Virus record (IMG/VR): IMGVR_UViG_3300009103_002144
Coordinates: 32,001 to 96,000 of that record
Origin: a virus
Strand: one strand, 5' to 3'
Length of the DNA stretch: 64,000 nucleotides
Shown here: piece after piece, positions 3 to 57,996 of the stretch
How positions within the stretch are numbered: position 1 is the stretch's first letter
Layout: each line of letters starts with the position of its first letter
Translations under genes and position numbers: made by a program
Notes under the pieces: generated by a model
Database searches by the model: none
What the model saw: the letters and a program-made list of their open reading frames with translations, nothing else
What the model was told of the DNA's origin: nothing

Positions 3-3000
3 TAATGCTATTGTATATGAATCTCTATTCGCACCTTCCGTATTCCGGAATTTTCTATAAAATGTTCTTGTACCGGAATTTATACCACTATAATTTGGAT
101 TACCAGAAGGTGCAAAAGCCAAAGAACCACCATCGGTGGAATTTCTAAAGTCTCCACTTAATAATCCTTCATCAGGTGCAACCAACTTATTATTATAGAC
201 CAGCAAGCCATTGGCATGCCCACCCGAACCAGACATATGAATTGAGCTATCCCAATCAAGAGATCCCCCAGTAACATCTGTCTGATTTGCGAAACTTCCA
301 CTTTGTGCTCTATAGGTCTCACCAGTAAACGTTTCATTTGTTACAGTGGCTGTTTCTGTAACGTTCCATAGCAAAAATCCTGAAGCAGAAGTTGAGCCGC
401 CGTCTGTTAAATTTGCCTTCAGCGGATGAGTGACTGTCACAGCTGCCGATACTGACCCATTCAACATAGTCTCATCTGTGATCGTAGCAGAGCCTGTTAA
501 CGAAAGAACCTTTTCAGAATTTTCGCCGGCTCCGGTGTTGATTGTGGGCTTTGCAATATTAGCAATACTGAGATTTGTGGTGGTAAATGTAATCGCATTT
601 GAGTCGTAACATGTCTTATATGCATTGCTCACGTCAACACGATACTCTGCTGTACCAGACCTAAAGAATGAAACTCCTGATAGTTGCTTAAGGCCGCCGG
701 CATCGACTGCTGTAATCTGGTTATTGCTGGCAGCTAATGCACTAGAATTAGAATCATTTACCCACTCAACGTAATTTGTTAATGAAGATGTAATATTGTT
801 TACAACACGCGTAACCCTAGAATAATTCCACCCATTTCGTTGGTCCCCAGTTCCTACCTGCCAATCACCTGTTCGATGTTTGAATGTATTGAATGAAGAC
901 CCATCCTGTTGTTTTGCTGATCCTGTCTGAGAAAGATTGATAAACCCAGAGCCATTAGACCCAGTACTAATAAATGTACCGCTTCCAGGGTTACCACTAC
1001 CCACAGAAGTGCTAGATAAAGAAGCTGTATGGATAACTGTACCGTTAACTTCAAGTTGTATTATACCTACATCTGCATCACCAAATGAATATTGAGGATA
1101 ATTGAGCTGATTATTGGCATAACGATTTTCTGGAACGTCGGAATTTAGAGTACCATCCATTACTGTGGCACCGGTAAAAATTGCTCTCCTTAGATTGCCG
1201 CTATTTGTCGCAACTTCGTATAGCCCATTTACATCAACTGCTATTCCGTAACCCGCTGATGAGCCAACGTCAGTATATCCAGAAGCTGCTGCACTTGAAC
1301 CGAAAGAAAGATATGCAGCTGTACCTGTATCGCTTGAGTCAACATTATCGAGAGCAGGAGCGGGTGATGGAGCAAGATCAAGTAAAACTTCGTTGAACCT
1401 ATCTACAGCTGTTCCAATAGCCGTACCATAAGCAAAGTCTGTAAATAAGCCGTCCCCATAAGTGCCATCTTCGGCAATCCCAATGACAGGTTTAATCGTA
1501 ACTTGTCCGCCACCATCATTCGTCACTAAGCTTGAAGTAAATACGAACTTTGAGACTCCAGAGACGGTATCACTGCCAGCTTGGGAAACGCTTACGGTAC
1601 CTCCTCCAGTATTCGAAGAAGATATCACCAGTTGCCCAGATGACGATGTAGTGACACTAACACTTCCCGTCCCTATAAGATATGGTGTAGAACCGTCGCT
1701 AAGCATCTGAAGGGAGCCTGTTAACCCTGTCTTGAATATTGCACTACTCTCAACGCCCAATGTTCCTGTCACGCCTACATTTCCGCTAAACTGAGAGCCG
1801 GTTAATGTCGCGACGATCGAATCTTTAACAGAAAATACATCGCTAGTAAGTTTCAGTCCTGTTCCAGCTGTGTAGGTACGACCTTGACTTGCGCTAACAA
1901 TAACTTGGCCACTTGACGCAGTGGATACACTCACTGCACCTGTGCCTATGAGATATCTCGTGGAGCCATTGCTTAGCATCTGAAGGGAGCCTGTTAACCC
2001 TGTCCGGAATACCGCGTTACCCTCTACCTCTAAAGACCCAGTAACACCAATATTTCCACTAAACTGGGAGCCGGTTAGAGTTGCGACAATCGAATCTTTA
2101 ACGGAAAATACATCTTCCGATAGCCTTATACCGGTACCAGGAGAATAAATCTTTCCAGCACTAGAGCTAACCACTACCTGACCGGCTGAGGAGGTTGAAA
2201 CATTCACTGATCCGGTTCCAACTATGTACCGAGTTGTACCGTCGTTAAGCATTTGGAGAGAACCTGTAAATGCAGGTGCTGTTACGGCTCCACTAAAAAC
2301 CGACCCTGTAAGTGTGGCAACAATGGAGTCAAGAATATCTAGAGTATATGCGCCAGCTGCGCCACCATCGGTTCCTTTTAAGCCAGTCCCAGGTGTCATT
2401 ACCCGCTCTGCTGTTAGAGAGCCCGTTGGAGTAAGAACTAAATACTCTGCCCTTTTATCGCTGTTACCTCCACCGGGCGAACCTCCAGCAATAGTATATG
2501 ATATTAACACGCTACCGTTTGATTGGGTAACTATCTCAATTTGGTTTCCAGCCCTTAGATATGATGATCCATCTATGAGTTTCGTCAAAGACCCAGATAG
2601 ATTTAGTGCGGTAGTCTTGCCGGCAAGAGATGTCCACCCACGAAAAATTGAATTCTTCTCAACTTCCAAAGATCCTGTTATGCCAATATCACCACTAAAT
2701 TGTGAGCCAGTCAAGCAAGCCACAACTGAATTATCGATAATAACATTTTGAGCCGCTGAACCATCAAACGTAAATGCCTTGATTCCGACCCCTTGTGATA
2801 GAGAATTTGGGACTTTCTGTACGTTCAGATTTCCAGACCCATCAGTACTGATTGTATTACTATCAATCTTGATCGCAATTTCAGCAGGGTTGGTATTTCC
2901 GTTGAATGTTATGTCAATTCCTGTTCCCTCATTCATTATAGCAGTACGATCAACTAAATCGACCAGCGTTCCCACGAGCTGTTTCGTGATTGTAGTTCCA

Positions 3001-4391
3001 CCATTTGACAAAATTGCATACGATGCTCTATCACCCGATTGTGCTAAACTAGTAGAATCTATTGCAACTGTCGCATTTCCAGTTCCATCATAAGAGAACG
3101 TACCAATACCAGAACCCTGACTAAGTGTACCACCGGTGCCAAGAGAGGAAGCAATCGTGATTTGTCCTGTCGTAGGTGTATCATAAGATATTGTAACATT
3201 GCTACCAGCGACAAGGTACGGTACTCCACTGGAGACCTCATCATGAACTGCTAGAATTGTACCAAATGTATTTGTTCCTGTGAATGTATTGTTCCCGGAA
3301 AATGTGTTTGTACCCGTAAAGGTATCATTACCAGAGTGAGTATCATTACCAGAAAACGTATTGTTCCCCACAAAAGCGTTACTAGATGCTAGCATCGGGA
3401 CTGTGGTTGTGTCGATACCAATCGTGGCTGTGCCAGAACCATCATATGAAAAATTCGCAATACCAGTTGTTTCTGAAAGTGCGTTGGGAACCTTTGCGAC
3501 GCTTATACCACTCCCACCAACGCTTAACGTTGTACCATCTAAGTTTATTGAAATCCCAGCTACGGCGAGATCTAAACTAGCATCAGCTAGCTTAATTTTT
3601 AGTGCATCACTACTGACCTCTAATCCGCCTCCAGAACCCGTCGCAACAAGGATCCTATCTGTAGTCGAACCGTCCCACGTGCTATTTCCAGACTGTAGTT
3701 GTAGAGGTGCGCCTATCGTTAATGCGCTCACAGAGCCGCCACCACCAAGAGCTAGAAGCGTTGCAACAGTACATTTTCTCGGAAAACCTGATACCCCACT
3801 CGTTACGTCTCCAAACATTATTAGATCAGATGTTGTCGGAGTGACACTGGACAGATTATCAAAATCGACCCTTATTCCAGCTGATGAGATTACGTTGACA
3901 CCTCCGTTACTAACAAAATCCGGTGTCAGTGTTACAGCGGCAGAACCGTCATATGTAGTTCCTGAGTCTAATTGCAATCCATTTCCAATTGTCAACGGAT
4001 TGTTAGAAAATCCAGATGCGCCGATCGTAATCTGTCCATCTGAGCCCGTGGCAATAGTGATATTTGACCCTTCTTTTAGATATGAAGAGCCATCTGCTAA
4101 GTTTGTCAGAGAACCTGTCAGGGCAATCGATTTCACAAGCTGTGTGTTAATCGTGGGTGCGCCGAGTGACTCGCTTGCAGTAACATACGTATTACTAGCG
4201 ACAAATGATGAAGCGTTAATATTACCGTATACGATCAGTGACTTGTCGAATTCAGTATCTGCGGATGACTCGCCAGGAAGGCCAACTTGAAATGCTTGAG
4301 GCGTGATGATCTTAACGATGTCATCATTACGTTGCGATCGTATTACAAGAAAATCAGTTTTTCTTATGTCTGTTCTGTCTTGATCGGCCAT
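3..4391 (-). CDS. Large Gly/Ser/Thr-rich tail fibre / virion structural protein, 3'-partial (>1463 aa); absent from the ORF track because it runs off the window
   Basis: ATG at 4391 (MADQDRTDIRKTDFLVIRSQRNDDIVKIITPQAFQVG...), 23 nt after the stop of the upstream gene. My manual translation stays open in one frame to position 3 (...RTFYRKFRNTEGANRDSYTIAL). Contains hexapeptide and 91-aa internal repeats typical of fibres. Confidence 0.85.
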   Translation of the reverse strand, partial: MADQDRTDIRKTDFLVIRSQRNDDIVKIITPQAFQVGLPGESSADTEFDKSLIVYGNINASSFVASNTYVTASESLGAPTINTQLVKSIALTGSLTNLADGSSYLKEGSNITIATGSDGQITIGASGFSNNPLTIGNGLQLDSGTTYDGSAAVTLTPDFVSNGGVNVISSAGIRVDFDNLSSVTPTTSDLIMFGDVTSGVSGFPRKCTVATLLALGGGGSVSALTIGAPLQLQSGNSTWDGSTTDRILVATGSGGGLEVSSDALKIKLADASLDLAVAGISINLDGTTLSVGGSGISVAKVPNALSETTGIANFSYDGSGTATIGIDTTTVPMLASSNAFVGNNTFSGNDTHSGNDTFTGTNTFSGNNTFTGTNTFGTILAVHDEVSSGVPYLVAGSNVTISYDTPTTGQITIASSLGTGGTLSQGSGIGTFSYDGTGNATVAIDSTSLAQSGDRASYAILSNGGTTITKQLVGTLVDLVDRTAIMNEGTGIDITFNGNTNPAEIAIKIDSNTISTDGSGNLNVQKVPNSLSQGVGIKAFTFDGSAAQNVIIDNSVVACLTGSQFSGDIGITGSLEVEKNSIFRGWTSLAGKTTALNLSGSLTKLIDGSSYLRAGNQIEIVTQSNGSVLISYTIAGGSPGGGNSDKRAEYLVLTPTGSLTAERVMTPGTGLKGTDGGAAGAYTLDILDSIVATLTGSVFSGAVTAPAFTGSLQMLNDGTTRYIVGTGSVNVSTSSAGQVVVSSSAGKIYSPGTGIRLSEDVFSVKDSIVATLTGSQFSGNIGVTGSLEVEGNAVFRTGLTGSLQMLSNGSTRYLIGTGAVSVSTASSGQVIVSASQGRTYTAGTGLKLTSDVFSVKDSIVATLTGSQFSGNVGVTGTLGVESSAIFKTGLTGSLQMLSDGSTPYLIGTGSVSVTTSSSGQLVISSSNTGGGTVSVSQAGSDTVSGVSKFVFTSSLVTNDGGGQVTIKPVIGIAEDGTYGDGLFTDFAYGTAIGTAVDRFNEVLLDLAPSPAPALDNVDSSDTGTAAYLSFGSSAAASGYTDVGSSAGYGIAVDVNGLYEVATNSGNLRRAIFTGATVMDGTLNSDVPENRYANNQLNYPQYSFGDADVGIIQLEVNGTVIHTASLSSTSVGSGNPGSGTFISTGSNGSGFINLSQTGSAKQQDGSSFNTFKHRTGDWQVGTGDQRNGWNYSRVTRVVNNITSSLTNYVEWVNDSNSSALAASNNQITAVDAGGLKQLSGVSFFRSGTAEYRVDVSNAYKTCYDSNAITFTTTNLSIANIAKPTINTGAGENSEKVLSLTGSATITDETMLNGSVSAAVTVTHPLKANLTDGGSTSASGFLLWNVTETATVTNETFTGETYRAQSGSFANQTDVTGGSLDWDSSIHMSGSGGHANGLLVYNNKLVAPDEGLLSGDFRNSTDGGSLAFAPSGNPNYSGINSGTRTFYRKFRNTEGANRDSYTIAL
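1620..2340 (-). repeat. Intragenic tandem repeat, 273-bp (91-aa) period, about 2.6 copies
   Basis: Equivalent positions at 1708, 1981 and 2254 (tgaagggagcctgttaaccctgtc at 1708 and 1981). Protein unit: DSIVATLTGSQFSG...TGLTGSLQML.DG.T.Y..GTG.V.V.T.S.GQ. Confidence 0.9.
3261..3381 (-). repeat. 18-bp (hexapeptide) tandem repeat G-x-[N/D]-T-[F/H]-[S/T], about 6-7 copies
   Basis: Translates as SNAFV GNNTFS GNDTHS GNDTFT GTNTFS GNNTFT GTNTFG. Confidence 0.9.
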
Positions 4392-4414
4392 TCATCTCTC
4401 GCCACCCTCTTGAA

Positions 4415-7400
4415 TCAGCCCAGTGAGCTAAGGAACGGCGAGGCCGTAAATGATTGTACAAGAGGACTAATAGTTACTGTCTGTCTACTAAATAGGAAGG
4501 TCCGTGATGTTTCACCCTCTTTGTAAGGAACAGAAGATGTCATTTCGCTACTAACGTTCAAGCAAGACGTCTCCCTGGGGTCGCTAAGTGGGAGCCCATC
4601 CCCGTCTACGAAAATACATGATACGGCCGGTTCTTGCAAGCCTGCTGGAGTGTGTTCGTCTCCAGTATCATAAAATCTCGAGTACTGCCTCTGCTCAAGC
4701 ATATCCCTGAATTGTCCGAACCTATCATACCTAAACACTGCAGAAGTTGACTGCTTTCTAAAATTAATAAGGCCGTACTTCCATCCCGATGGATGATCCA
4801 ATTGTGCTTTTGGAGCCCAGTTGGTGAAACCAATCTGTGTTGTGTCTGTGTTTGGAAACAGTCGGCCGACTGTTGGAAGCGGACGATCACCCCACTCTGT
4901 TTTCCAGAAACCAAATATAGAAGCCATGACAATGTTTAGCTGACCAGCTGGATTATCAACTTTTTTCGCGCCGGACCATGCCTGAGTGTTGCCCTTGGGC
5001 TTTGCCCAGCTTATTGCCTCAAACATACGATCATTGACCCCATCCGCTATTCTGATTGATGTTACGAGAGCCTGAGAGCCTGTAGGGAACGTTCGACCGG
5101 AATTTGATAATTTCGCCAATGCACTCTTCCAAGCCAGCGCGTTCTGATAGTTGTCTTTTGGAACAAATACAGACGCTCGTGAACCAGATGTATTCAGCCC
5201 TTCGGTCGTTACGATTGCTCTTTTAAGTGTACTATACCTTTCCTCGAATGGAAATGATGGTAAATAATAGGGGTTTGGCCACATTGGACGTTCGTCGAGC
5301 TCCTCGTTAGGAGTCGCCTCCGTGCCTCCATTCCAGGGTGTGGACCAAGTGTAGACCCATGATGTAGTACCAAGATTAAACGAGAGAGTTTTATCCGTTT
5401 GGGCCGAATCGAAGGCTTCGGGAGAGGGTCCCGAGATTTGAGGCCCGGATACACCCCCTGACATCAATAAGTCTATATCCCACATCCGGGATGGGTTGGG
5501 AGGGAATGAATCATAGTAATATTCACTATCATCAGACAATCGAACAAAGCGCTGGATCGACCCAGAAATTCCCATGCTTATCGAAGTTGAAGGAGCCTTT
5601 GGCCAGTATGGTGTAGTGCCGGCATCTCCGGCGATTCCATCAGCATCAGGTAGACCAAGGCCGAACCATGTCTTTTGATTATCCCTGGCATTAGGTCTAT
5701 AAACACGTCTGGTATATTCTCCATATACAGAATAGGGACCACCAAGCGGTACGTAAGATGGTGAAAGGCGCGAAAAGGGAGATCGAATTAGAAGATTAAT
5801 GCCTTCCGTAAATTGGGGAAGTGCCATATCATATCTATTTCTCTGAGTATATTGGATATTACCCGTAATATGATGTGCAATATAGCTTCCTGTGTAAGCA
5901 TACGTTGGCTCAATCTGGAACTGGTCAGTTACAGGGGCGCCCATAATAGCTTGATGTACAACATTTGTACGCTGGGGTGGGACCGTTGAATCAGGTGGTA
6001 GGTGCTTTTTATTTCTAAGAAGAGTACCATAAAGAACGAGCTTAGCATTTCGTGACTTCTTCAGTGTAAATGAACTCCTTGGCTCATAAACAGTCTCCAT
6101 ATTTGCGTTATTTATGCTTACCTTCTTGGCATTACGTGTTATTACCTTGTTGGGTCCACGACGAAGGTGATACCCACCTTGACCACGAGAATCTACTTTT
6201 TCAGATCGGGCGGAGTCTAGAGCATAGTTCCACTCAGGATTGTAAGCAGATCCAGTTGGTATCCCTTGTCTATCATAAACCCCATCCCTCCAAGGACCGT
6301 ATGGGTTAACGTTCGGGTTCATAGGTATTGTATTATTTCCACGATTGCCGCCCTGGAGAGACGGCTGGAACCCCAATACAATCTCATCACCGGGCATCAA
6401 GAGATATAGGCTTGTCTTTGGTTTGTCTAAGTAAAGTGACGCGGAGGTAATAGGCGCATACGCACGGCTCCATTCAACTGGGGATAGGCCAAGCTCCTTT
6501 TGTTGTTGCTCTTGATTGTAGGAGCCCACTCCCACCTGATTAACTCTACCAGCCAATACCCCTTCAGCTTCAACCATTCCAAATGGATTGTTCCAGTTCG
6601 CATTCGCGCTATACCCAGCTCTGAATAGTCCAGGTCCCGGGGCCCACTGTGGTACGTTGGACTCAAGCATCTCGCGGCGGGTTCCAGATATTTGGTAAGT
6701 CGTTATTGGCCTATTTGCAGCCATTGCAGCCACGTAGCGTCTACCTGATGTTAATTGTGGAGGGTTACCAACCAGATGTTGCCACTCGCTCGCTTGAGTG
6801 TCACCAATATAGCCACCCTCAATAGCATAAGCACGCCACCAAATTCTATCATTCGCAAACCGAGAATTCTCCCCATGCTCTCTTGTCGTATGATTCACCT
6901 CATAGTCGGCTGCGCCCGCCATGGCTCCTGTGCCAACCAGATACTGCCTCTTTGCTGGGGCAGTGTGAACGAATAAAGCAGAGGAATCGCCAGCTGATAT
7001 AGGCTGTGATTTAATATCTGAAACGATCCTAAATTTTCCAGCGTTTAATAGTCTGCGCTCTTTGAACGTTGCACGAAGCTTATGGTCCCCGTTAAATCGA
7101 CCAGCCAGATCTCCGGGTGGGAATACTGTACTTGCAGTTAGAATTGTGAAACCTGCCTCGCCGCCATTAACGTCTGTCCGAGAGTGCTTCATTTTCCAAG
7201 TAACTTCAATATCAAGATCTCTAGAAAGACCTGCATCTAACCAATTAGATAATTTGACGGGAGCACTGGAAGTTATATATCTATCTGTTCGGCGATAGGC
7301 AGGGACGTTGATATCGCACCATCCTCCAATACCGCCACGAGCCCAGTTGCGCCCAGGATTGTGGAACGACCCAAAGATGGCTAAATCAGGATGTGTTCCA

Positions 7401-19508: not shown

Positions 19509-19514
19509 TTTTTA

Positions 19515-21359: not shown

Positions 21360-21362
21360 CTT

Positions 21363-21860: not shown

Positions 21861-21875
21861 GATAAACCACCCATA

Positions 21876-22215: not shown

Positions 22216-22224
22216 AATTCCTCC

Positions 22225-33201: not shown

Positions 33202-33237
33202 AGTATCTCCCGTATTATTCTATAAAATTAAAGTACG

Positions 33238-35288: not shown

Positions 35289-35289
35289 T

Positions 35290-40702: not shown

Positions 40703-40710
40703 GTTTAATC

Positions 40711-45088: not shown

Positions 45089-45863
45089 TCTTTATATTCT
45101 CCATTATTTGTTCGTATTGCCACTCTGCCATTACAGGCGGCCTTTCACCCGCTATTAAGCCCATCGTTTTATAGAGGTGATAATACATGTCAGATATCAA
45201 TATGACAATATTCGGATTATAGTCTTCTCTAACTGTTTGTGTGTAATCGATCAATACCTCATTGATGTTAGCAAATTTTGCAAATGGCATCATTCTACAC
45301 CAAAGCTCAAAATCTTCTGCAAGGTGCCATAGATCTGAATAACCGCCAACGCGCAGCATCACCCGACGTCTAACCACGACAGAGGGATGACATATCGGAT
45401 TTTGACCGATCATGAGCATTTGCTTCATGCTATTATCTTCTACGGCATAATTTACTTTCTTTCCAAACGTCCCTATTTCCTCGACCCTACCATCGGGATC
45501 TAATGTTCTTATTTGAGTCCCGATTATATCTAAGTGAGGTTGCTCTTCGAATAGCTTCATTTGCTTTTCAAGCTTATCAGGATACCAATAGTCATCATCA
45601 TCTTGACGAGCTATAAATTCGCAATCAGAATTGTATATTCCATAATTTAAAGCAGGAACTAAGCCCTGCTCTTTGCAATGTACTATTCTTACATTCGCAG
45701 TATCAGCAAATTTGTGAGCAATATCACAACTAGAATCCGTGCTATTGTTATCGACTATTAGTGTTTCGAAATCTCGATACGTCTGGTCGGCTATGGATTT
45801 AAGTGAGGCTGCTAACGTTTTCTCCCCATTATAGACGGGTAGAATAATTGAGACTTTTGGCAT
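45078..45863 (-). CDS. Glycosyltransferase family 2
   Basis: SIILPVYNGE; VDNNSTD; ARQDDDDYWYPDKLEKQ; CHPSV; EDFELW. Confidence 0.92.
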   Translation of the reverse strand: MPKVSIILPVYNGEKTLAASLKSIADQTYRDFETLIVDNNSTDSSCDIAHKFADTANVRIVHCKEQGLVPALNYGIYNSDCEFIARQDDDDYWYPDKLEKQMKLFEEQPHLDIIGTQIRTLDPDGRVEEIGTFGKKVNYAVEDNSMKQMLMIGQNPICHPSVVVRRRVMLRVGGYSDLWHLAEDFELWCRMMPFAKFANINEVLIDYTQTVREDYNPNIVILISDMYYHLYKTMGLIAGERPPVMAEWQYEQIMENIKNDK

Positions 45864-45865
45864 CT

Positions 45866-47806: not shown

Positions 47807-47827
47807 CAAAACACTCCTGCTGATGCA

Positions 47828-47990: not shown

Positions 47991-50900
47991 TTATGGAGTT
48001 GTTGATTCTTTCAGTACGTAGACTATCTGAAAAGTGATATAGTTTGTCGACGTTGTCGATGTACCGTTCTCATCATAAAAAGTACTGTTTCCAGCTGTAA
48101 AGGTCATCCATAGCCTGTCACCTGCCTCGAAAGAGCATGAGCTAGCTCCAAAATCAAACGTCGTCGGTTTTCCGGCTCTCGAAGTGCTGAAATTCGTATT
48201 GTAGCTCATCGCAGCGGTATCAGAATCGACCGCGGTTAGGCCTGAAAGATCTGATATCGCTCCGTCATCAACTTTGTACCACTTGATGGTACTATTGATC
48301 AATGCAAATCCCTTCCCAATATTATAATCTGGGAGCGCTTCTACGAATTCAATATATCCATCACATGGTGCAATCCAGGAATACCGCCACTGTGTGGGAT
48401 GAGTTAGGCCGGAGCGGGTCGAATCGCCATCATCCGGCGAAGCCTTCACAACCATCTCGGTTGTATTATCGGCGTCAGACAGAAACATTCTCCATTGCAT
48501 ATAGTTTCTATGACCATCAATATCGATTGGCTTATCCGAACTCCCGGAAGATATCAAAGCGGTAGCAAGTACGCTGGTGGTAGCTGGCTCTATAACTACT
48601 CCACCGTCTGACCCAATTCTCATCCGCTTTGTACCAGAAGTAGCACCATCAGCAGTTGTATAAAAATCGATTTGTCCAGGCTGACTTACACCGTCAGTCC
48701 AGGTTCCTGTTCCAACTTCTCCAATAATTGCCGCAGCTATACCATAATCCACAGTATCAAACCCATGTGGCACAGAACCGGTTGCAGCCAAAAACCTGAT
48801 TTCTCCAAGGTTTTCTCCGTTAGCGAGAGTGCCATCACTAGCGTATTTTCTCATATTAAATTCTGGACCTGAGTTTTGAAGGGTCGCTCTACTGGTTATG
48901 TTCAATTGAGGAATCACACCGTTCCCGGTAGCCATAATGCTAACAGGATTTGTTGAATTGCTGTTTATGTTCGACCCACTAAAGCTTAAGACCTCCCCTC
49001 CACCTGCAGCGATTGGAGAATATAACTTATCGGCTCTAATACTCTTGAATGCTTTATCTGAAAATTGACCAGTTATTGTAGCGCGAGATCCAGCTGTTGC
49101 AGATGCCGCCCAGGACTGACCGGTCGCTATTTTAAAGCCAGCGTCAGAATAGGATGAGTAAGTTAAGACATCGCCGGCACCTGCACCTAGATGAGTCACA
49201 AAAACGTCTTTATAGCTAATTGGATTTTTTATCCAGAGGGCTGATGTAAAATCAGTGTCATATTCCAGAGTGATGTCTGTACTAGGGTCAAAGTATGCAC
49301 CGCCAGAATATTGAGCGTAATTAAGCGGCTCGACAATAATCTTAGTCCCATCCGTGTAATAGTAGGGACTGGAGTTTTTGCCAGTTATTTTTACCGTAAC
49401 AAGCATCTGCATCCCGAATTCATTGAGGTCGATTTCTCTCCCACTGAAGCTAACTAAGAAAGTCGCACATTGAGTATCCTGATGTGTAACCACACCAATC
49501 GAATCTGCTATTTTTAACCAGTAACCGTTTCCTGACACACCGGTGATATTGACTTGTGTACTAAGCGGCTTCTCGAAGCCTTTTTGGGCGTTCGCAATTC
49601 CATTAATTTGTAGTGTACCCGCAAGAGTAGTATTACCCGAACCGTCAAATGTTACGCAAGTATTGCCCCCACTGTCGCCGATATCATTACCTCTAATGAT
49701 CAGATCTCCATCAACATCAAGCTTAGCAGCTGGTGTTGGAGTCCCAATGGAAACGTTTCCACTGTCAAGAGTAAAGACAGTTGTTCCGCCGGAGTCTTGA
49801 ACTGTTCCGGCATCGACTCGAAGGGGAGCAGCTACTCGACAAGAAAGGGGGGTCATGAACAGGGCCAGCGCACCGTTTTGGTAGATCCTTTGTCCTTCAA
49901 TATCAATTCTGCCAGTAAATCGTACCGATGATGAGCTAATTCTCATCCTACGTACAGGACTAGTTTCTGCATTTCCCCTGGTATAGAAATCCATCCATGT
50001 TTCAGATAAATTTGTATCATCATGATTAGCCGAAGCAACACCTTCGATGTAAGCCCCCACCTGCTTTGTTCTTTCTGCGTATGTGGAAAAATTCGCATCC
50101 GAGCTCCACCAAGCGATTCTGCCGAGGTGATCACCGGCCATAATAGAACCTTTCGGTGAGGCGCTGCTTCCACCCATCGCGCTTGCATATGAGACAAGGT
50201 TAAGCGTTGGTTGTTGCTCTTGGCCTGCGTAATAGCCACTGCCGGCGATTGGCGATCCATTATATAGCGAGACGAGAGTTAAGGATCCAGAGGGTATATC
50301 TCCCTTATCAATCTCCCAATAGTATTGTTGAGTATTTTTGGGAAAGGCTCCAGCATAGGTGCCACTTACCAATATAGTTCCACCTTGATCATCGATTCTT
50401 AACCTGGTCCGGACCTGGTCTCCTTGAGCTATTTCAGCAGCAGATGTGTTGGCATCCAAAGAGTAAAGACTAACAGTAAAGTTCGATTTATGTGTTGACG
50501 ACCCATTGTTATTATACGCTTTGCTAAACCCAACCCGGCCGCTATATAGCTCTGTACTCTTATGAAATGAAGTATCGAAAGTTATTTGCGCCGCATTTTC
50601 CGCGCTTGTATTACTGTTATTTCGAAGAAATAATACCGATTTTGATACGTCAAAGGCGTCAACTGCTATCGAGGTGTTATTTTTATTTTCAATGTGCAAC
50701 GACGCAGTTGGAATATAACTCCCCCATTCGTTGCTAGAATTTTCAGCACTGGGAATAGTATTAGGCGCCCCAATTCCAATTTTCGTATTTTGCCCACCTG
50801 CCATAATGGTGAGTGCTCTATTTTTGAGGAGATGATTCGGCGCTGAAAGACCTCTTGCTCCATTTGCGATTGCCCAACTATTCATCCGTGCATTAGTACC

Positions 50901-52040
50901 ATATCTTTTCGGACTAACGCCCATATTCCAATTTCCGCCCGATCCGGCGGTTGGCGGGGACGTTCCAGCATTCGTATCATTGCTATGCTGGAATGAAATC
51001 ATTGGATAGTGGTTGCCATTGAATGAACCGTTATTTGGCCCAACTGCATTTATTTTTAACCATGAAGGAGCAGTTAGTTGAGACCCAGAGATAATAACAG
51101 ACCCATCGCCATCATCACCACCTGAATCTGGTTGACCGCCACCCCCTAATCGAACTGGTAAAGCGGCAGAACCAGCATCAGGTAAAACAAGCTTACCCTG
51201 GTTTTGGGCTTGGTCTCTACGTCGAAAAGAAAATCTTGACTTATTGGAGGCGCCATGATCGACATACAGTCCAGGGCTTGCAGTCTCACGAGCATCACCG
51301 TCCTGAGTGAACTCATAGCCGGATACGGCACCATCTTTTGAGTCCATAGCCATATAGGCATTACCTTCAGGACTAGAAACTCTAAATTGTTGATATGGTA
51401 CACCGCCAGCGGATGATTGATTGTTAGGCCAAGTATTTGTACCGTCAGTCCATTCCCCGGGATGCCCAACTTGTAGATACCCAACACTGGCACTACCATA
51501 AACGACGAGATCTTTGTCAATACCAACCGAACCAGCAGCTGTATTCATTCTTGCTTGCCACCCAGGGCTAGCGGTCCCGGCTGCTGATGAAGCTGAAATG
51601 ATCATCCTTGGAAATGCTATACCTTGATTTGTGGAATTATCTTCAGTATGAAAACTCAGTTCGGTTCGTCTATTTTCATTTGTAGCCCATGTACCCTTTG
51701 CCGTCGCTCTTATTTCTGCACCGACACCTGGGTTGGTGTCTTCACCACGCCAGACTATTGTTCCAAGTCTATCGCCAGACTGGATATTACTATTCAAATT
51801 CGAAAAAGTGGCAGATGCTTGTCCAGTAGCGTCTCCAATCCCTAGAGGGTTTGATCCAGTAATTGAAACCCCGCCTTGAATGTCAGCTGTTCCTGTTAAA
51901 ATTAGCGCCCGCAGCTGGCTGTCAGTGCGTCCTACTGAGCTGGAGAGAATTCCGCTTGTCTTGATATCGCCTTTTGAATTAAGCGACCCGGTTACGTGAG
52001 TTTGGTTTGACCCAGTAAAATGAAGAGAAAAAATCGCCAT
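47991..52040 (-). CDS. Tail fibre protein (1349 aa) with three copies of an internal module
   Basis: G[DE].LG.I.[WF]...[GA]A.I.[AG]...[LMI].F[HY]T...RM.I occurs three times. GNVSIGTPTPAAKLDVDGD is a typical fibre-shaft motif. Confidence 0.8.
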   Translation of the reverse strand: MAIFSLHFTGSNQTHVTGSLNSKGDIKTSGILSSSVGRTDSQLRALILTGTADIQGGVSITGSNPLGIGDATGQASATFSNLNSNIQSGDRLGTIVWRGEDTNPGVGAEIRATAKGTWATNENRRTELSFHTEDNSTNQGIAFPRMIISASSAAGTASPGWQARMNTAAGSVGIDKDLVVYGSASVGYLQVGHPGEWTDGTNTWPNNQSSAGGVPYQQFRVSSPEGNAYMAMDSKDGAVSGYEFTQDGDARETASPGLYVDHGASNKSRFSFRRRDQAQNQGKLVLPDAGSAALPVRLGGGGQPDSGGDDGDGSVIISGSQLTAPSWLKINAVGPNNGSFNGNHYPMISFQHSNDTNAGTSPPTAGSGGNWNMGVSPKRYGTNARMNSWAIANGARGLSAPNHLLKNRALTIMAGGQNTKIGIGAPNTIPSAENSSNEWGSYIPTASLHIENKNNTSIAVDAFDVSKSVLFLRNNSNTSAENAAQITFDTSFHKSTELYSGRVGFSKAYNNNGSSTHKSNFTVSLYSLDANTSAAEIAQGDQVRTRLRIDDQGGTILVSGTYAGAFPKNTQQYYWEIDKGDIPSGSLTLVSLYNGSPIAGSGYYAGQEQQPTLNLVSYASAMGGSSASPKGSIMAGDHLGRIAWWSSDANFSTYAERTKQVGAYIEGVASANHDDTNLSETWMDFYTRGNAETSPVRRMRISSSSVRFTGRIDIEGQRIYQNGALALFMTPLSCRVAAPLRVDAGTVQDSGGTTVFTLDSGNVSIGTPTPAAKLDVDGDLIIRGNDIGDSGGNTCVTFDGSGNTTLAGTLQINGIANAQKGFEKPLSTQVNITGVSGNGYWLKIADSIGVVTHQDTQCATFLVSFSGREIDLNEFGMQMLVTVKITGKNSSPYYYTDGTKIIVEPLNYAQYSGGAYFDPSTDITLEYDTDFTSALWIKNPISYKDVFVTHLGAGAGDVLTYSSYSDAGFKIATGQSWAASATAGSRATITGQFSDKAFKSIRADKLYSPIAAGGGEVLSFSGSNINSNSTNPVSIMATGNGVIPQLNITSRATLQNSGPEFNMRKYASDGTLANGENLGEIRFLAATGSVPHGFDTVDYGIAAAIIGEVGTGTWTDGVSQPGQIDFYTTADGATSGTKRMRIGSDGGVVIEPATTSVLATALISSGSSDKPIDIDGHRNYMQWRMFLSDADNTTEMVVKASPDDGDSTRSGLTHPTQWRYSWIAPCDGYIEFVEALPDYNIGKGFALINSTIKWYKVDDGAISDLSGLTAVDSDTAAMSYNTNFSTSRAGKPTTFDFGASSCSFEAGDRLWMTFTAGNSTFYDENGTSTTSTNYITFQIVYVLKESTTP

Positions 52041-55000
52041 TATTCATCATCCTCCAAGGGTGTAAGCCCCATCTTGTATTTTTTTCCTGTTATGTTGTTC
52101 ACAACAACTAGCATGTCTCTTTCCTCGTATATTGTCCAGTCACCCCGATTGTTTTTCAGATGAAGGTCACCAGTATAGACATTCGCCCATCGAGCAGTAG
52201 AACTTCCGAGGTTATATTCGCTATCAAATCCAGGAAGAAGACTTCCGGATACTGCTAGATTTCCTTCGAACCCGCTTCCTGTTGAGGTATTACCGCTCGA
52301 GCCCATTGAAAAACTTATACGCCCGCTTGCAGTGCGATTCGCAATATGTAATATTTTCGGACCAGGTTGAGAACCAGCTGTATTAGTATATTGAATGAAT
52401 GTGCTAGCTTCATTTGGATCCCAAAAAAGCTTTCTACTATTTCCTGCATTGGTTTGAATGGAAATATTTTTGTTGCTATTGATTATCATTGACATATCAG
52501 CAACAGCGCTACCACCAACGCCGAACCCAAGTTGCCCGGCACTTCCTGTTACAAAAACCCCGCCGTATGTAAAGAATCCGTTTGAGTCGGCGATAGGAGC
52601 TATCTTTATTTGTCCGACCTTTGCAGACCCAACAACATCAAGAAGAATATCATCACCTGTTACAGCAGCATTATGAAGCCAAATTGCTCCGTTATCTACA
52701 GTCACTTCTCGACCAAGACCTGCACCCTCAACCCCGGCATCATTTGTATCGTAAGCTTTATTAAGGCTTCCACCGAAGCTAGTATTATCACTCGTAAGCG
52801 TTCCTGAAATGTGTACATCACCGCCAAATAGCGATATCGATCTTCTGTTTAATTGATTTGCGATGTCTGCCGGCGCTCGAGTTCGCATTCCAATAGCACC
52901 ACTAACGAAGAAGAAGACATCAGAGTTTCCTGCGCCTGAATCATTACTGCTAACCAGGTTGGTCGGCCGTGGATTATTGTCTGAATATCCGTCAAATCCA
53001 CTATCGAATGAGAATGATCCGGTGGTCATTCCATAATTTGGTACATTCAACGCAGTCCTTGTTACACTAAAGAGGTCATCACTGACTGCTAAGCTTGCTA
53101 GCTGTGTTAGTGACTTAGCGGTTCCCAATGAATTGTCTCGGAACATTAAGTTGGTACCAGATTTCTGGATGTAATGATTTGCATCGTAGAATCGAAGATA
53201 AGCAGAGGTGGATGTTAATGTAAGATTCGACAACTCAATGCTTCCCGCACCTAAAGCGCCAGAAACGTAAACATCGCCACCAAACAATGCAGTTGCTCTT
53301 GTAGCGGCCGCCGTATCGCCAGCTTGATACTTGCTACCGGTAGACCCACTAAAGAATAGTAGAACATCATCGCCGTTTGCAGGATCAATATTCGGATTAG
53401 AATCGCTAAATGTATTATGAAGCATTACTCGTCCGGTATTATCATGTCCTATAACGGTGATCGCTGGTGAAGTTGTCGGAGCATTACTGTATATCTTTGT
53501 GTCAACAGCGACCTGGCCACCATTTATATTCAGTGTCTTTATTGATGACTGACCATCTGCATTCAATATTTCGGTTCCAGAAGAGATTAATTTTATTCTT
53601 CTATCTTGGAATCTAATAGCTGTTTGAGGCGCACCACCTACGCTATTCTCTTGTCCGTCATGATAAATGTATTCTCCAAGCGCCATGCTTCCTGATATGA
53701 CAACATCGCCGGTAAATAAGGACGTTCCACGATTGTGCTTAAGTGGTAGATTACCTGCTGAACCAGAAAAGATCAAGGTGACATCTTCATTCTTATCCGT
53801 GAACATTCCGTTATCGAGTTCACCAGCGCTATAGCCTAATGATGCATATCCGGTATCCGGAGCAATATTGGGGGCAGATGAAGTAAAGATAAGGACGGCG
53901 CCGGTACCTGCGCCTTGTGCTGTGTTTGCCTCGGCAGCAAAAATCTCAACAGATTGTCCCATCCCAGTTGTTTTAACTGTTATTTCTTTCGACGTGCCGT
54001 AAGAAAGATTTCCGTTGGATGTTTGTCCACTACCATTGATGTACTTGTTGTCGCTCGCAAAATAGATGTTTTGTCCATCTGTAAATTTGAGGCCCTGCAT
54101 AGAGCCCATTAAATCAAGCTCAAGTTTGTTTCCAGTTAATGTCCATCGTACAGGGTTTGCAACGGCTTCATTAAAGTAAAGGTGCTGAGCGCTAGATAGA
54201 TCCATTGAATAAAATGATGCAGACATCTGAAGCGTCTGACCATTAGCTTTCATCAAGAGCCCATTCGGATTCGTTCCATCGCCTTGCCTAACTAGAAGAT
54301 TATCTGAACCCAATTCTATTGTTGGAGCATTAGACAACCTGAGACCTGTCGCGAGATTGAGGTCTAGCCTATTATTCGATGTGCCTTGCGCGGATTGAAA
54401 GAATACATTATCGTTAACATCAAGATAGATTTTCTGTGCTGTGCCAGATACACCCGTAGAATTAAAGGAATAACTAGACCCACTGAATACCATCGGCCCG
54501 AGCGCTCCACCACCGCTAAGAGTGCCTGCATGTAGTGTAAGTTGTCCAGCACTTCCCGTATTACCCACTTTAACGTTATACGTCGAAGCACCTGGAACTT
54601 GGGATGCTGTGACTGTCATTCCGGCAGCTGTTCTAAACCCAGCAGCTCTGAGATCAATTGGAACAGTTCCACCAAGATTTTCATCCACGCCTGGATGGGC
54701 GTGCATCGCCATCCGGCCTACTAAGAATGTATCAATTCCATGTCCGGAACCATAAGTCTGTGTATCTCTCCCGAATACAAGCGCAGGAACAAACGTACCA
54801 ACGCCATGTCCATAATCAGACTTCATCCATTCAACTCTAGACCCGGATGATATCGCTATTCCTCCACCTGAATTTCTTTGTACACTTCCAGAGTTTATTT
54901 CCAGTACAGGATCTGAAAGAGATGCAGTAATAACATGACCCTTAATAAAGTCCCCATGAACCGTGAGGTTACCCCATACATCTGCATTACCGGGGTTGCC

Positions 55001-57283
55001 AGATGTTCCAACATGAAGATCTTTCCCGGTTGTAACTAGAGATGCATTTCCGCCAAGAAAGACGGGGATATTTGTCGAATCTGTCGCTAATTGAACACCA
55101 TGCACAGTTGAATCAGCATTGATATATACCCCAGCGTTCCCCGCTCCTTTCGCACCGATTTTAACCTCAGACCCGCTGAATATCAATTGCGACGTCGCAT
55201 GGATCGATGCACCGGCGTCGGAGGTTGCAATAAGACCTGTGAGGCCAGCATTTATATCAATCACAGTCGCGTTTAATTCGACTTCCGTTGTCGCTGCGCC
55301 AACCTGAATCTTGGATGTGTTTGCACTCGTGCCTATGGAGATATTGTTACCTGTTGGTCCGGCATCGATAAGAACGCTATTACTACCGGTCATAATCAGT
55401 AAGCCATCAGCATTAAGCGTTAAGGAGGCTTTGCTACTTCCTGTTCCCACCGTTTTTATGGTGTGAGCGCCTTGGTTTCCAGAGCCGCTCATCTGTAGAT
55501 AATTATTTTGGTAACCACTTGCCCCTGAACCACTCGATGCTAGCGTTACTGTATATCCACCTTTCCCAGCAGTGTCTTCGGGATCGACAGAATGATGTTC
55601 AATTACAAAGATCTTCTCTGTCGATTCAGTCTTTCCAGTGTTGAAGCGGTTCCACCCCCGGTTCCATACAGATACGTCACCACCGCGAGAGGTGATATTG
55701 ATAACTCCATCTGTGTCATTTGCATCGTACCCGGCGGTGATATTGATGTCATCGGTTGCTCTCAGCTGAATGTTGTCTTCTGACGTCAGATACATGTCTC
55801 CGAGACCGGCACCTATCTTTATTCCACTACTAGGCTTGGACGCTGTTATAATCAGCGTATGGGAACCAGGATAATCGTATTTATTTTTGGGACCAGCACC
55901 GGATGCGGCTTCTTGGTAGAAGATAGCTGTATCACCGCCGCCTTTTGTTCCACCACCATAAAAACTAATCCCAAGCTCCTGGCCAAATTCACCTTGGGTT
56001 GGTGAGCTTTCCTTTCCTGGAATGTAAATTCCACTTGAAGCCGTCACTTCCCCATATTCGAATTCAAAATGTACGGGATAGGTGTTTGTTCCCTGAAATC
56101 TTAGTCTGGCATTATCATCGGCCCCTGGGGTACGGGGTTGATGTCGAATTCGTAACCGAACATCGCGTGAATCAAAATAAAAGTCCCTGAACGGATCAAG
56201 TGCTATATCACCAGAACCAGATATCGTAAAAACGCTCTTGTCTGGATTGTCCTTGGAGAATCCGCCCGCTCTTCCAGCATGTAGCCCATCACCCGCAACC
56301 AGGAACCGGAAACCACCCTTTTTTAATCCAGCATCAATAGAGCTTGAGTTAATAAAATCAGAATACCAGTGTGACGGTACAGGTTTCCCCCCGATATTTG
56401 TATCGGCAGATCCTGAAATGCTCCACCGATCTTGTTGAACATAAGTTGGGACCATGGGGGGCCCAACTGCTGCGGGCTTGTAGGAAGCAGTAGTTGCATG
56501 CCCGAAGCTAGGGCCTTCCTGAAAGGCGGGCCCGCCTGCGGTGCCGCCGGGAGTATTTGTGGGGTGGTGCCAGCTGGCAGAGTTGTTAAGGATTATATCT
56601 TCACTTGGATCATAAAATCCCGATCCATCACCGGAGAGATTTCCAGAAATATGAACATCGCCTTCGAATAATGCGATACCACCGGTCTGCATTCCTCTTC
56701 CACCGACTGAACCCGAGAATACTACGAAAGCATCTTTATTTTTTGTTAAGTTATTTACCTTGCCTGCCCAGTCTGTCATCCTAAATGAAACTCTAGGTGG
56801 GATGATCGAGTTTCCCTTCTGGATTACTAATGCATCCTGGGTCTCACCACCATACAGCGTTGGAGAAGAGAATAAGTTTCCAGATAGAAACGTATTATCA
56901 AACACCTGGAAATCACCATCGACAGTCTTATCAACGTTAATAACTTGTCGTTTACCGAAAAGCGTTCCACTGATTATGACATCTCCCATAAAGAGTACAG
57001 CGCTTCCTCCCGGACTAACAACTGGTTTGTCAATGTGTTCACCGGTGTTTGCAGTACCAGAGAATACCAACCATGGCTCATTCCCAAACTCTTCGAACAT
57101 GCCGGCGTCTACCATGGTACCACCATGGTCCTGTGCATTACTAGCAGACATAATAACCATTCCTAAGTGTGGATGGTATTTCAAGTTGCTTTCTTGCTCA
57201 CTCCCGCCAACGGTCGGCCAAGCTGTACCTGAAGCAATTATTGTGTGAAATCGTATTTGATCTGCTCTAAAATCCTTAGCCAT
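52040..57283 (-). CDS. Long tail fibre protein (1747 aa) with five internal repeats
   Basis: Five copies of [FV]SG[STA]...LF.GDV.[IV]SG. The C-terminus YNLGSSTARWANVYTGDLHLKN...WTIYEE...NNITGKKYK resembles a fibre terminal module of aquatic phages. Confidence 0.82.
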   Translation of the reverse strand: MAKDFRADQIRFHTIIASGTAWPTVGGSEQESNLKYHPHLGMVIMSASNAQDHGGTMVDAGMFEEFGNEPWLVFSGTANTGEHIDKPVVSPGGSAVLFMGDVIISGTLFGKRQVINVDKTVDGDFQVFDNTFLSGNLFSSPTLYGGETQDALVIQKGNSIIPPRVSFRMTDWAGKVNNLTKNKDAFVVFSGSVGGRGMQTGGIALFEGDVHISGNLSGDGSGFYDPSEDIILNNSASWHHPTNTPGGTAGGPAFQEGPSFGHATTASYKPAAVGPPMVPTYVQQDRWSISGSADTNIGGKPVPSHWYSDFINSSSIDAGLKKGGFRFLVAGDGLHAGRAGGFSKDNPDKSVFTISGSGDIALDPFRDFYFDSRDVRLRIRHQPRTPGADDNARLRFQGTNTYPVHFEFEYGEVTASSGIYIPGKESSPTQGEFGQELGISFYGGGTKGGGDTAIFYQEAASGAGPKNKYDYPGSHTLIITASKPSSGIKIGAGLGDMYLTSEDNIQLRATDDINITAGYDANDTDGVINITSRGGDVSVWNRGWNRFNTGKTESTEKIFVIEHHSVDPEDTAGKGGYTVTLASSGSGASGYQNNYLQMSGSGNQGAHTIKTVGTGSSKASLTLNADGLLIMTGSNSVLIDAGPTGNNISIGTSANTSKIQVGAATTEVELNATVIDINAGLTGLIATSDAGASIHATSQLIFSGSEVKIGAKGAGNAGVYINADSTVHGVQLATDSTNIPVFLGGNASLVTTGKDLHVGTSGNPGNADVWGNLTVHGDFIKGHVITASLSDPVLEINSGSVQRNSGGGIAISSGSRVEWMKSDYGHGVGTFVPALVFGRDTQTYGSGHGIDTFLVGRMAMHAHPGVDENLGGTVPIDLRAAGFRTAAGMTVTASQVPGASTYNVKVGNTGSAGQLTLHAGTLSGGGALGPMVFSGSSYSFNSTGVSGTAQKIYLDVNDNVFFQSAQGTSNNRLDLNLATGLRLSNAPTIELGSDNLLVRQGDGTNPNGLLMKANGQTLQMSASFYSMDLSSAQHLYFNEAVANPVRWTLTGNKLELDLMGSMQGLKFTDGQNIYFASDNKYINGSGQTSNGNLSYGTSKEITVKTTGMGQSVEIFAAEANTAQGAGTGAVLIFTSSAPNIAPDTGYASLGYSAGELDNGMFTDKNEDVTLIFSGSAGNLPLKHNRGTSLFTGDVVISGSMALGEYIYHDGQENSVGGAPQTAIRFQDRRIKLISSGTEILNADGQSSIKTLNINGGQVAVDTKIYSNAPTTSPAITVIGHDNTGRVMLHNTFSDSNPNIDPANGDDVLLFFSGSTGSKYQAGDTAAATRATALFGGDVYVSGALGAGSIELSNLTLTSTSAYLRFYDANHYIQKSGTNLMFRDNSLGTAKSLTQLASLAVSDDLFSVTRTALNVPNYGMTTGSFSFDSGFDGYSDNNPRPTNLVSSNDSGAGNSDVFFFVSGAIGMRTRAPADIANQLNRRSISLFGGDVHISGTLTSDNTSFGGSLNKAYDTNDAGVEGAGLGREVTVDNGAIWLHNAAVTGDDILLDVVGSAKVGQIKIAPIADSNGFFTYGGVFVTGSAGQLGFGVGGSAVADMSMIINSNKNISIQTNAGNSRKLFWDPNEASTFIQYTNTAGSQPGPKILHIANRTASGRISFSMGSSGNTSTGSGFEGNLAVSGSLLPGFDSEYNLGSSTARWANVYTGDLHLKNNRGDWTIYEERDMLVVVNNITGKKYKMGLTPLEDDE

Positions 57284-57292
57284 TTTTTCCTC

Positions 57293-57634: not shown

Positions 57635-57996
57635 TACGTCCCCGCCTTCACTGATTGAATCAAAACAGTGCCTGTCCATTTTGTACTAGCTGCAATCGTA
57701 ACAGAGGCCTTTTTACTACCTGGGGCAGCAATGCCACCAATCTCAATTTTAGTTAGATAAATGTTGAGGTCACTATCGTTAGAGTCTCCAAGTGGTGTTG
57801 CAGTTATGACAGGTGTCGAGTCATAATTCTCTTTTAGTGTAAACGTGACAGATTCTTCGTCTACAAACTTAACTTCCCACGTCTCGATGATTAGCGGTCC
57901 GTCTCCCATATAGGAATTTACGGGTAACTTGCGAAACCGAGGGTATACTTTTCGATATCGATTTTTATCAATCTTCTTTAGCTTTGTACTTCCCAT
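57634..57996 (-). CDS. Small beta-rich virion / fibre-associated protein with basic N-terminus
   Basis: GAGGTG RBS; first gene of the fibre operon; VTFTLKENYDSTPVITATP...LNIY...AST...G...IQS. Confidence 0.7.
   Translation of the reverse strand: MGSTKLKKIDKNRYRKVYPRFRKLPVNSYMGDGPLIIETWEVKFVDEESVTFTLKENYDSTPVITATPLGDSNDSDLNIYLTKIEIGGIAAPGSKKASVTIAASTKWTGTVLIQSVKAGT

Follow-up and report, generated by a model that had tools for sequence, protein, structure and literature searches.

A recurrent Ser/Thr-small-Ser motif in outer virion proteins of aquatic phages and its co-occurrence with a pair of GT4 glycosyltransferases

What is the meaning of a short Ser/Thr motif that recurs in the outward-facing virion proteins of a large uncultured marine phage, proteins whose genes flank a large block of sugar genes? 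The question is raised by a stretch of 64,000 nucleotides, hereafter the window, which corresponds to bases 32001-96000 of a 109-kb phage contig (IMG/VR record IMGVR_UViG_3300009103_002144; CheckV completeness about 23%) and whose genes are all on the minus strand. A first-pass annotation, made from the letters alone, had proposed that a hydrophobic residue followed by [ST][GAS][ST] is a sequon for a phage-encoded glycan coat. The outward-facing tail, baseplate and fibre proteins contain Ser/Thr-Gly/Ala/Ser-Ser several times more often than expected by chance. As judged from sequence comparisons, the motif probably marks where a sugar coat made by the phage is attached, because the excess has been found only in phages that encode an adjacent, phage-specific pair of glycosyltransferases (GTs) of the GT4 family.

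The excess was assessed by composition-preserving shuffles, for the core [ST][GAS][ST] and for a four-residue form in which a hydrophobic residue precedes it. It survives these shuffles, including contig-wide. In the 518-amino-acid (aa) protein, for which the hand count of 16 non-overlapping sites, 13 of them after F, I, L, V, M, Y or W, proved exact, the four-residue form occurs 13 times against 1.5 expected (z 9.8). The 1747-aa protein has 40 sites against 17.6 (z 6.2) and 24 four-residue sites against 5.4 (z 8.1), and the 1225-aa protein 20 against 6.7 (z 5.6) and 11 against 2.4 (z 5.8), respectively. The whole 2161-aa protein has 31 sites against 12.6 expected, and the 1463-aa part of it that lies in the window has 23 hydrophobic-motif sites against 9.4 (z 4.7). 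Enrichment is more moderate in the 2615-aa protein (31 against 18.0, z 3.4; four-residue form 14 against 5.7, z 3.6) and weak in the 670-aa LamG protein (11 against 5.7, z 2.5) and the 1349-aa protein (25 against 16.6, z 2.4), the four-residue form giving z of about 2.3-2.5 for both. Two small open reading frames (ORFs) of 128 and 120 aa have too few sites to be judged (z 1.7 and 1.4; in the 120-aa ORF, two four-residue sites against 0.3). The initial observation is confirmed, with strong enrichment in several of the virion proteins named and weak enrichment in others.

The core baseplate proteins show no excess, as had been claimed. The gp6-like wedge of 614 aa has a single site against 2.8 expected and therefore serves as an internal negative control, and the gp25-like protein has none. 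In the 623-aa protein, 4 sites were found against 1.9 expected (z 1.6), so that its low count stands but not the exact figure of about 3; no Pfam or PHROG family was found for it that would sustain its designation as gp5-like. Over the 109-kb contig, enrichment is confined to large virion-type proteins, including three upstream of the window (863, 447, and 730 aa), and no enzyme is enriched.

When all tripeptides were scanned in about ten large virion proteins with no prior motif, TGS (53 against 12.5 expected, z 12.6) and SGS (62 against 16.4, z 11.9) were the two outliers, followed by FSG, VSG, TAS, SAS, and SGT, and there was no excess of TGT, NGS, DGS, SGD, or NGN. An excess of hydrophobic residues is seen beside [S/T]-G-S at positions -3 (Leu), -2, -1, and +3, together with a deficit of charged ones. 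The scan and the flank profile together indicate a motif narrower than first written, namely hydrophobic(-3..-1)-[S/T]-[G>A,S]-S-hydrophobic(+3): the S/T-small-S core stands, and the third position is essentially Ser rather than Ser or Thr. A generic Gly-turn explanation was rejected, as N/D-G next to S is not enriched, and so was an origin of the sites in internal repeats, as no self-repeats are detectable by BLAST. In agreement with the initial impression that the enriched proteins are unrelated, most have no BLAST similarity to one another, although the 2161-aa protein and the 730-aa protein upstream of the window share a module. The 1747-aa protein contains a loose unit, recurring at least five times without BLAST-detectable repeats, in which hydrophobic-hydrophobic-F-S-G-S is followed 20-30 residues on by L-F-x-G-D-V-x-I-S-G-x-L; it is common to the 730-aa and 2161-aa proteins and to a fibre of G002, a related complete genome of 284 kb.

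The link with the two GT4s, here called the 417 and 392 families, emerged from a comparison of phage genomes, in which all ORFs of at least 300 aa were scanned with per-protein shuffles (for T4, two structural regions only, 64 kb) and an ORF was counted as enriched at z>3.5 with at least 4 sites. All five phages with both GT4s were enriched. The observed/expected ratio of [ST]GS was 3.42 in this contig (8 enriched ORFs), 1.99 in G002 (5 ORFs), 2.78 in Flavobacterium phage immuto (6 ORFs), 2.75 in Microcystis phage Mel-JY01 (9 ORFs), and 2.93 in Rhodothermus phage RM378 (2 ORFs). TGS and/or SGS rank among the top 10 of all tripeptides in these phages, and the same tripeptide specificity is found in Mel-JY01, RM378, and immuto. 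None of the eight unrelated controls, which have neither GT4, was enriched: the ratio was 0.8-1.8 in KVP40, S-PM2, HTVC008M, Ma-LMM01, phiKZ, RSL1, and PAU, and about 0.6-0.7 (7-8 against about 13 expected) in the T4 regions, with no enriched ORF in any of them, which speaks against the motif being common to phage fibres at large. When the 5/5 and 0/9 are compared by a naive Fisher test, which ignores phylogeny, the result is about 5e-4. The expectation that enrichment in relatives would accompany GT genes, and the GT4 pair in particular, was thus borne out.

Some of the enriched proteins belong to families common to these phages, and others are lineage-specific singletons. The orthologues of the 1225-aa protein are enriched in G002, Mel-JY01, and immuto, as are the sheath proteins of the same three phages, in which most sites lie outside the conserved inner core. 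Judged by protein and region, the candidate sites are thus limited to the periphery, and in the sheaths mainly to the parts away from the core. G002 has two tandem tail-sheath paralogues (65116-71822; 1175 and 1049 aa), and in both of them most motif sites fall in a long N-terminal extension outside the core.

Within the clade, LR756508, an uncultured phage of 484 kb closely related to Mel-JY01 and immuto, provides the contrasting case. Its wedge, sheath, and a head-type protein are 44, 42, and 54% identical to those of Mel-JY01, and it has kept a PD-(D/E)XK gene, the 417-family GT4, and genes for GDP-mannose 4,6-dehydratase (GMD) and fucose synthase (303.7-306.7 kb and 320-322 kb). No 392-family GT4 was detected by a tblastn-type search or by a hidden Markov model (HMM) run over all its ORFs of at least 100 aa. 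Its genome shows no motif excess, with a ratio of 1.53 for [ST]GS and 1.13 for the four-residue form, and no enriched ORF. For [ST]GS in the 1225-family protein, observed and expected counts are 11 vs 1.5 in Mel-JY01 and 5 vs 1.3 in immuto, against 2 vs 0.8 in LR756508; in the protein encoded after the wedge, they are 4 vs 0.4, 3 vs 0.5, and 0 vs 0.2, respectively, and in the sheath, 4 vs 0.9 in Mel-JY01 and 0 vs 0.6 in LR756508 (immuto left out). The 1225-family proteins of LR756508 and Mel-JY01 align over about 1200 residues at 27-29% identity, and in a five-way alignment most columns with sites common to the pair-positive phages hold other residues in LR756508. In this relative, which lacks part of the GT system, the equal enrichment that would have spoken against a sequon was therefore not observed; the 392-family GT4 and the motif excess have been lost together. 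A search for further relatives with the LR756508 wedge returned only the three already known.

The pair itself is held in a constant setting. All 32 related IMG/VR loci that extend far enough share one gene order: PD-(D/E)XK, 417-family GT4, 392-family GT4, the 102-, 241-, 123-, and 623-aa proteins, gp25-like, gp6-like, and the 518- and 1225-aa proteins. The 417-family GT4 is 55-68% identical between relatives, compared with 38-42% for structural proteins, while the other sugar genes are mostly absent or different. The first-pass annotation had taken the large GT locus as the partner of the motif; it is the adjacent GT4 pair that holds as such, and not the whole 22-kb locus, the rest of which varies between relatives. 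The PD-(D/E)XK gene adjoins the pair in the relatives and also in immuto and Mel-JY01, where the three genes open another, shorter glycan cassette that is not next to the baseplate genes; the immuto cassette has aminotransferases, GT2, a methyltransferase, and an acetyltransferase-like 'pilin glycosylation protein.' In RM378, the pair consists of p013 and p014. The 392-family HMM matches proteins of G002, immuto, and Mel-JY01, and p014 of RM378. The 417-family GT4 of Mel-JY01 is annotated as two ORFs (open frames of 198 and 313 aa; PP395634, 83441-84932). The same phage encodes a 1228-aa protein with a 392-family-like domain (PP395634, 4747-8430; HMM E 4e-24), next to the gene of a collagen-like (S-G-T)n fibre and that of a strongly motif-rich 508-aa protein.

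Both members of the pair match PF00534 and PF13692, as expected of GT4 enzymes. Residues E285 and E293 (E-x7-E) are invariant in the 417 family, and in the 392 family E276 is invariant and is followed eight residues on by E or D. The AlphaFold2 (AF2) model of the 392-family protein, with a predicted local distance difference test score (pLDDT) of 92.5, has a GT-B fold; its top 50 structure matches are GT4 enzymes, the best in the PDB being chlorovirus B736L (3oy2), and SdgB is among the matches. For the 417 family, the sequence matches in the PDB are Tll1590 and then B736L, and the nearest ESM Atlas clusters are 87-100% viral, indicating a virus-specific family.

In the window, the order of genes from high to low coordinates is as follows: two small ORFs, the 1747- and 1349-aa fibre-like proteins, the sugar block (22 kb, 47809-25498), a 102-aa membrane-anchored protein, conserved proteins of 241, 123, and 623 aa, the gp25-like and gp6-like proteins, the 518-, 1225-, 670- (LamG), and 2615-aa proteins, and the start of the 2161-aa protein (Table 1). 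Most of the large proteins have no family in PHROGs or Pfam, and neither the baseplate region nor the 518-aa protein has a match in cultured phages by megablast or tblastn. The T4-type late promoter TATAAATA has no match on the gene strand. Beyond the small ORFs, a 436-aa protein in which a PIN domain is fused to a PhoH-like ATPase is encoded at 58031-59341 (-); PhoH-like parts are also found in S-PM2, HTVC008M, Ma-LMM01, and KVP40, all of them controls in the comparison above.

Table 1. Features of the window, listed by increasing coordinates
Feature	Coordinates	Strand	Basis or remark
N-terminal 1463 aa of 2161-aa fibre-like protein, motif-enriched; gene exceeds window start	3..4391	-	shuffle counts
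2615-aa virion-type protein, moderately enriched	4415..12262	-	no Pfam/PHROG family
670-aa LamG protein (Laminin_G_3), weakly enriched	12263..14275	-	PF13385, E 4.7e-7
1225-aa large baseplate-module protein, strongly enriched	14275..17952	-	adjoins 518-aa gene in 71 related loci
518-aa protein directly after wedge gene, highest motif density	17952..19508	-	16 sites
gp6-like baseplate wedge, 614 aa, not enriched	19515..21359	-	phrog_219
gp25-like baseplate protein, 0 sites	21363..21860	-	PF04965, E 2.5e-5, below curated cut-off
623-aa conserved baseplate-module protein, not significantly enriched	22225..24096	-	no family found
102-aa protein, one N-terminal hydrophobic span	25203..25511	-	Kyte-Doolittle 19-residue average 2.04
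392-family GT4 glycosyltransferase	25498..26676	-	Pfam GT1/GT4
417-family GT4 glycosyltransferase	26681..27934	-	Pfam; most conserved gene of module
PD-(D/E)XK nuclease-family protein	27985..28860	-	PF12705, E 5.8e-20
Sugar-nucleotide genes	28857..34182	-	Pfam/NCBIfam
Variable glycan-building block	34191..47809	-	Pfam/NCBIfam; all products soluble
1349-aa fibre-like protein, weakly enriched	47991..52040	-	no family
1747-aa fibre-like protein, strongly enriched	52040..57283	-	shuffle counts
Two small ORFs, 128 and 120 aa	57293..57996	-	4 and 2 sites

We infer from these data that the phage might glycosylate those of its virion proteins that are exposed, and do so in the cytoplasm of the host at a late stage of infection. 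The soluble GT4 pair would act on protein, starting a glycan on a hydroxyl of the motif, with hydrophobic-[S/T]-[G/A/S]-S-hydrophobic as the putative acceptor on β-strands, at strand ends, and in tight turns; the proteins concerned would be those of the outer tail, the sheath, the periphery of the baseplate, and the fibres. The lineage-variable neighboring genes would supply and add the remaining sugars, through a GDP-6-deoxyhexose (fucose-type) pathway, a partial heptose pathway, the GT2, GT6, and further GT4 enzymes, and O-methyltransferases. The glycan might serve in shielding, stability, or host binding. Virion glycosylation via the GT4 pair is the best available explanation, to which we give roughly an even chance (about 0.5); of the initial proposal, the excess is confirmed and the interpretation is partly supported, by correlation, the partner being the pair rather than the locus. 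A wider form of it, to which we would give slightly less than even odds, is that a broad clade of aquatic myoviruses, with hosts among Bacteroidota, cyanobacteria, Rhodothermus, and further marine organisms, builds an O-glycan coat on a true sequon of few residues, hydrophobic-[S/T]-[G/A/S]-S; the coat is one that the phage-specific pair would initiate in the cytoplasm and hypervariable cassettes would extend. That this coat covers tail, sheath, baseplate periphery, and fibres, the pair acting on folded or folding proteins, is a similarly tentative part of the proposal.

Several points weigh against glycosylation by the pair. The support for it consists of sequence correlation, and the pair-positive phages represent few lineages (this one, the immuto/Mel-JY01 group, and RM378), and the contrast with the controls ignores phylogeny; within the clade, the negative case is a single genome, LR756508. 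In Mel-JY01, the motif excess persists although the 417-family GT4 is annotated as two ORFs. The cytoplasmic enzymes of the phage do not avoid the motif. Soluble GT2 and GT4 enzymes of surface-polysaccharide pathways use host lipid carriers and exporters. Finally, the hydrophobic residues on both sides of the motif would fit a β-strand or turn element, and the very strong positional conservation of the sites is equally expected from a structural role.

The last two points lead to the alternative that survives best, although we consider it unlikely: the motif would be part of the structural grammar of the β-rich outer proteins of this clade, a small-residue S-G-S element at the end of a strand or within it, and its link with the GT4s would result from phylogenetic hitch-hiking. 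The 518-aa protein, which has more than 1286 homologues in marine metagenomes, bears on this. Homologues as distant as 40% identity still show the motif excess, the mean being 10.6 hydrophobic-motif sites per protein, and the sites are conserved in position as core residues are. Several of them are kept in 113-117 of 117 sequences; position 0 is then T or S, position +1 is G, A, or S, and position +2 is S almost without exception. The AF2 model (pLDDT 78.5, with fold matches) consists of an N-terminal jelly roll resembling carbohydrate-binding modules (CBM) and DNRLRE proteins, followed by immunoglobulin (Ig)-like β-sandwiches and a C-terminal domain, the last 135 residues of the protein being free of sites. 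Many sites lie at strand ends or in hairpins, as a structural element would, but others are found mid-strand, in loops, and in one helix. The flank profile also suits such an element, whereas there is no excess beside Gly of Asn or Asp, the residues that commonly form turns. Many of the enriched proteins of immuto, Mel-JY01, and this lineage belong to homologous families, and one immuto spike has SHAEG repeats like those of YadA heads that yield such tripeptides; on the other hand, unrelated lineage-specific proteins are enriched too, and the fibre and Ig-like proteins of T4, KVP40, cyanophage, pelagiphage, phiKZ, RSL1, and PAU show no excess. The orthologues in LR756508, still alignable after the loss of their sites, are also difficult to reconcile with a structural role. 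Moreover, the conserved motif serines have undergone TCN/AGY codon switches more commonly than other conserved serines, which fits long-term selection for a hydroxyl.

A second alternative, somewhat less likely still, is that the glycan locus, including the GT4 pair, remodels an envelope glycan of the host (lipopolysaccharide, capsule, or S-layer) by way of host carriers and exporters, for instance for superinfection exclusion or release, and that the motif has another cause. The content of the locus bears on this directly. Of the 13 GT-like genes claimed for it, 10-11 could be demonstrated with Pfam, as three GT4, six GT2, one GT6, and one weak GT1-like match, and two ORFs stay unassigned. 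The sugar-nucleotide genes encode a GDP-mannose 4,6-dehydratase (446 bits against a cut-off of 415) and, with scores below their equivalog cut-offs, a GDP-fucose-synthase-like protein, two SDR epimerase/reductases, and an HddA-like GHMP kinase; a further protein of 226 aa is without assignment. In the glycan-building block are the third GT4, the six GT2, the GT6, four methyltransferases, a GmhA-like SIS protein, a HAD phosphatase, and ORFs without a family, and most of these genes have no homologues at the same position in relatives. The 647-aa protein (45866-47809, -), with a GT2 domain from about residue 340 and an N-terminal half without a family, is among the few extension genes conserved in G002 (52% identity). 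The ABO-type GT6 (42568-43323, -; PF03414, E 4.6e-27) shares the locus with the GDP-fucose-type pathway and has a copy of 33% identity in G002.

Genes such as these (GMD, fucose-synthase-like, heptose-like, GT2/GT4, methyltransferases) resemble O-antigen and capsule clusters, and their content is as hypervariable between relatives as that of surface-polysaccharide loci. As had been claimed, the GT-like products are soluble, no protein of the sugar block having a convincing membrane span. No protein on the contig has three or more hydrophobic spans, and only four small ORFs (111-224 aa) of the complete G002 genome have at least three, which leaves no polytopic candidate for a flippase, polymerase, or oligosaccharyltransferase encoded by the phage in the locus or in G002; neither is there an initiating phosphoglycosyltransferase or a ligase. 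Such GTs are normally peripheral and soluble in surface-polysaccharide pathways as well, and the missing membrane genes are thus compatible with a target in the host envelope. Against remodeling of the host stand the position of the locus inside the late virion gene block of this lineage, on the same strand and with overlapping genes, and the phage-specific nature of the GT4 families; it would also leave unexplained why the motif is in excess and why this excess has gone along with the 392-family GT4. Of the proteins encoded near the glycan locus, the 102-aa protein alone is of membrane type. Its gene overlaps that of the 392-family GT4 at the latter's end, and a homologue is present in 33 related loci between the GT4 pair and the baseplate genes.

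It is improbable that the motif is the target of another modification or recognition event, such as Ser phosphorylation or the binding of an assembly chaperone, with an indirect link to the GT4s: the selected feature does look like a pair of hydroxyls, S/T at position 0 and S at +2, with Ser kept across codon switches, but no candidate enzyme has been shown to co-vary with the motif, whereas the 392-family GT4 does. Least credible is a PD-(D/E)XK-GT4-GT4 module that glycosylates phage DNA at hypermodified bases in the manner of the T4 glucosyltransferases, the motif being unrelated, since, although a nuclease-family gene always accompanies the pair and DNA-glycosylating GT-B enzymes of phages are known (cited in PMC12619734), no ThyA-type dCMP/dUMP hydroxymethylase (PF00303) is found in G002, Mel-JY01, or RM378 (immuto has one), a 22-kb oligosaccharide-building locus would be excessive for base modification, and the motif data would have no explanation.

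To our knowledge, phage-encoded virion glycosylation has been shown only for mycobacteriophages, and we know of no acceptor motif there. Literature searches returned neither a description of this motif nor one of glycosylated virions for the present clade. If glycosylation by the pair is confirmed, a sequon and its enzymes would allow glycosylated virion proteins to be predicted from sequence in uncultured marine jumbo phages, and would explain the presence of large glycan loci without export machinery in phage genomes. Glycans proper to each lineage would be a phage counterpart of O-antigen diversity. A sequon of this kind would also have a bearing on how hosts are recognized, on the stability of the particle, and on its resistance to proteases and to grazers at sea. 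For glyco-engineering, the motif could provide a compact tag for O-glycosylation in the cytoplasm. The proposal can be tested directly, as three cultured phages, immuto, Mel-JY01, and RM378, have both the pair and the motif.

Among known systems, GtfA/GtfB and SdgA/SdgB, protein O-GlcNAc transferases of serine-rich-repeat adhesins and Ser-Asp repeat proteins, respectively, are similarly paired, soluble GT4 enzymes of the cytoplasm that O-glycosylate serines in short Ser-small-Ser contexts, ahead of the arrival of the protein at its final site. Their substrates are long, disordered, low-complexity repeats, whereas here single motifs are found in folded domains. The parallel with GtfA/GtfB drawn in the first-pass annotation fails on the defining features of that pair: GtfB has no catalytic activity and a DUF1975 insertion is present in GtfA, while both GT4s described here keep E-x7-E/D and have no Pfam match to DUF1975. 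The BAHT heptosyltransferases, including AAH and TibC, O-glycosylate serines in the cytoplasm at strand-short loop-strand elements of β-rich surface proteins, attaching heptose to the passenger domains of autotransporters, and the locus has heptose-pathway-like genes. However, they are GT9-like, iron-containing dodecamers that use ADP-heptose, and none of the 29 window proteins scanned with Pfam matched GT9 (Glyco_transf_9), so that an enzyme of the AAH/TibC type is not supported. Membrane components of seroconversion systems, of the GtrABC or Wzx/Wzy type, were not detected on the contig by the hydrophobic-span scan. Chloroviruses (PBCV-1/NY-2A) and giant viruses also encode cytosolic glycosylation machinery that uses non-canonical acceptor sites. 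The glycans of the PBCV-1 capsid protein are N-linked. Chloroviruses are viruses of eukaryotes, and the identity to B736L is only about 14%.

This lineage may belong to the moraphages, large aquatic phages known from metagenomes, which have a histone H1/Hc1-like protein and four core GT orthogroups (PMC12619734). The moraphage study lists the glycosylation of virions among the roles that phage GTs in general might have and describes no motif, sequon, or link between a GT pair and virion proteins. In mycobacteriophages, soluble phage-encoded GTs have been proposed to glycosylate the structural proteins of the phage inside the host, as the pair would do here (Freeman et al., 2023, as cited in PMC12619734). 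In the account given there, subunits of the capsid and the tail tube carry the glycans at their C-termini and a short sequon is not mentioned, whereas the present candidates, known from genes alone, are dispersed [S/T]-G-S sites in folded outer proteins and a GT4 pair, in phages of marine or aquatic Gram-negative bacteria and cyanobacteria. Virion glycosylation in mycobacteriophages is the closest functional precedent for the system proposed here, and GtfA/GtfB, SdgA/SdgB, and the BAHT heptosyltransferases are, by analogy, the closest in mechanism.

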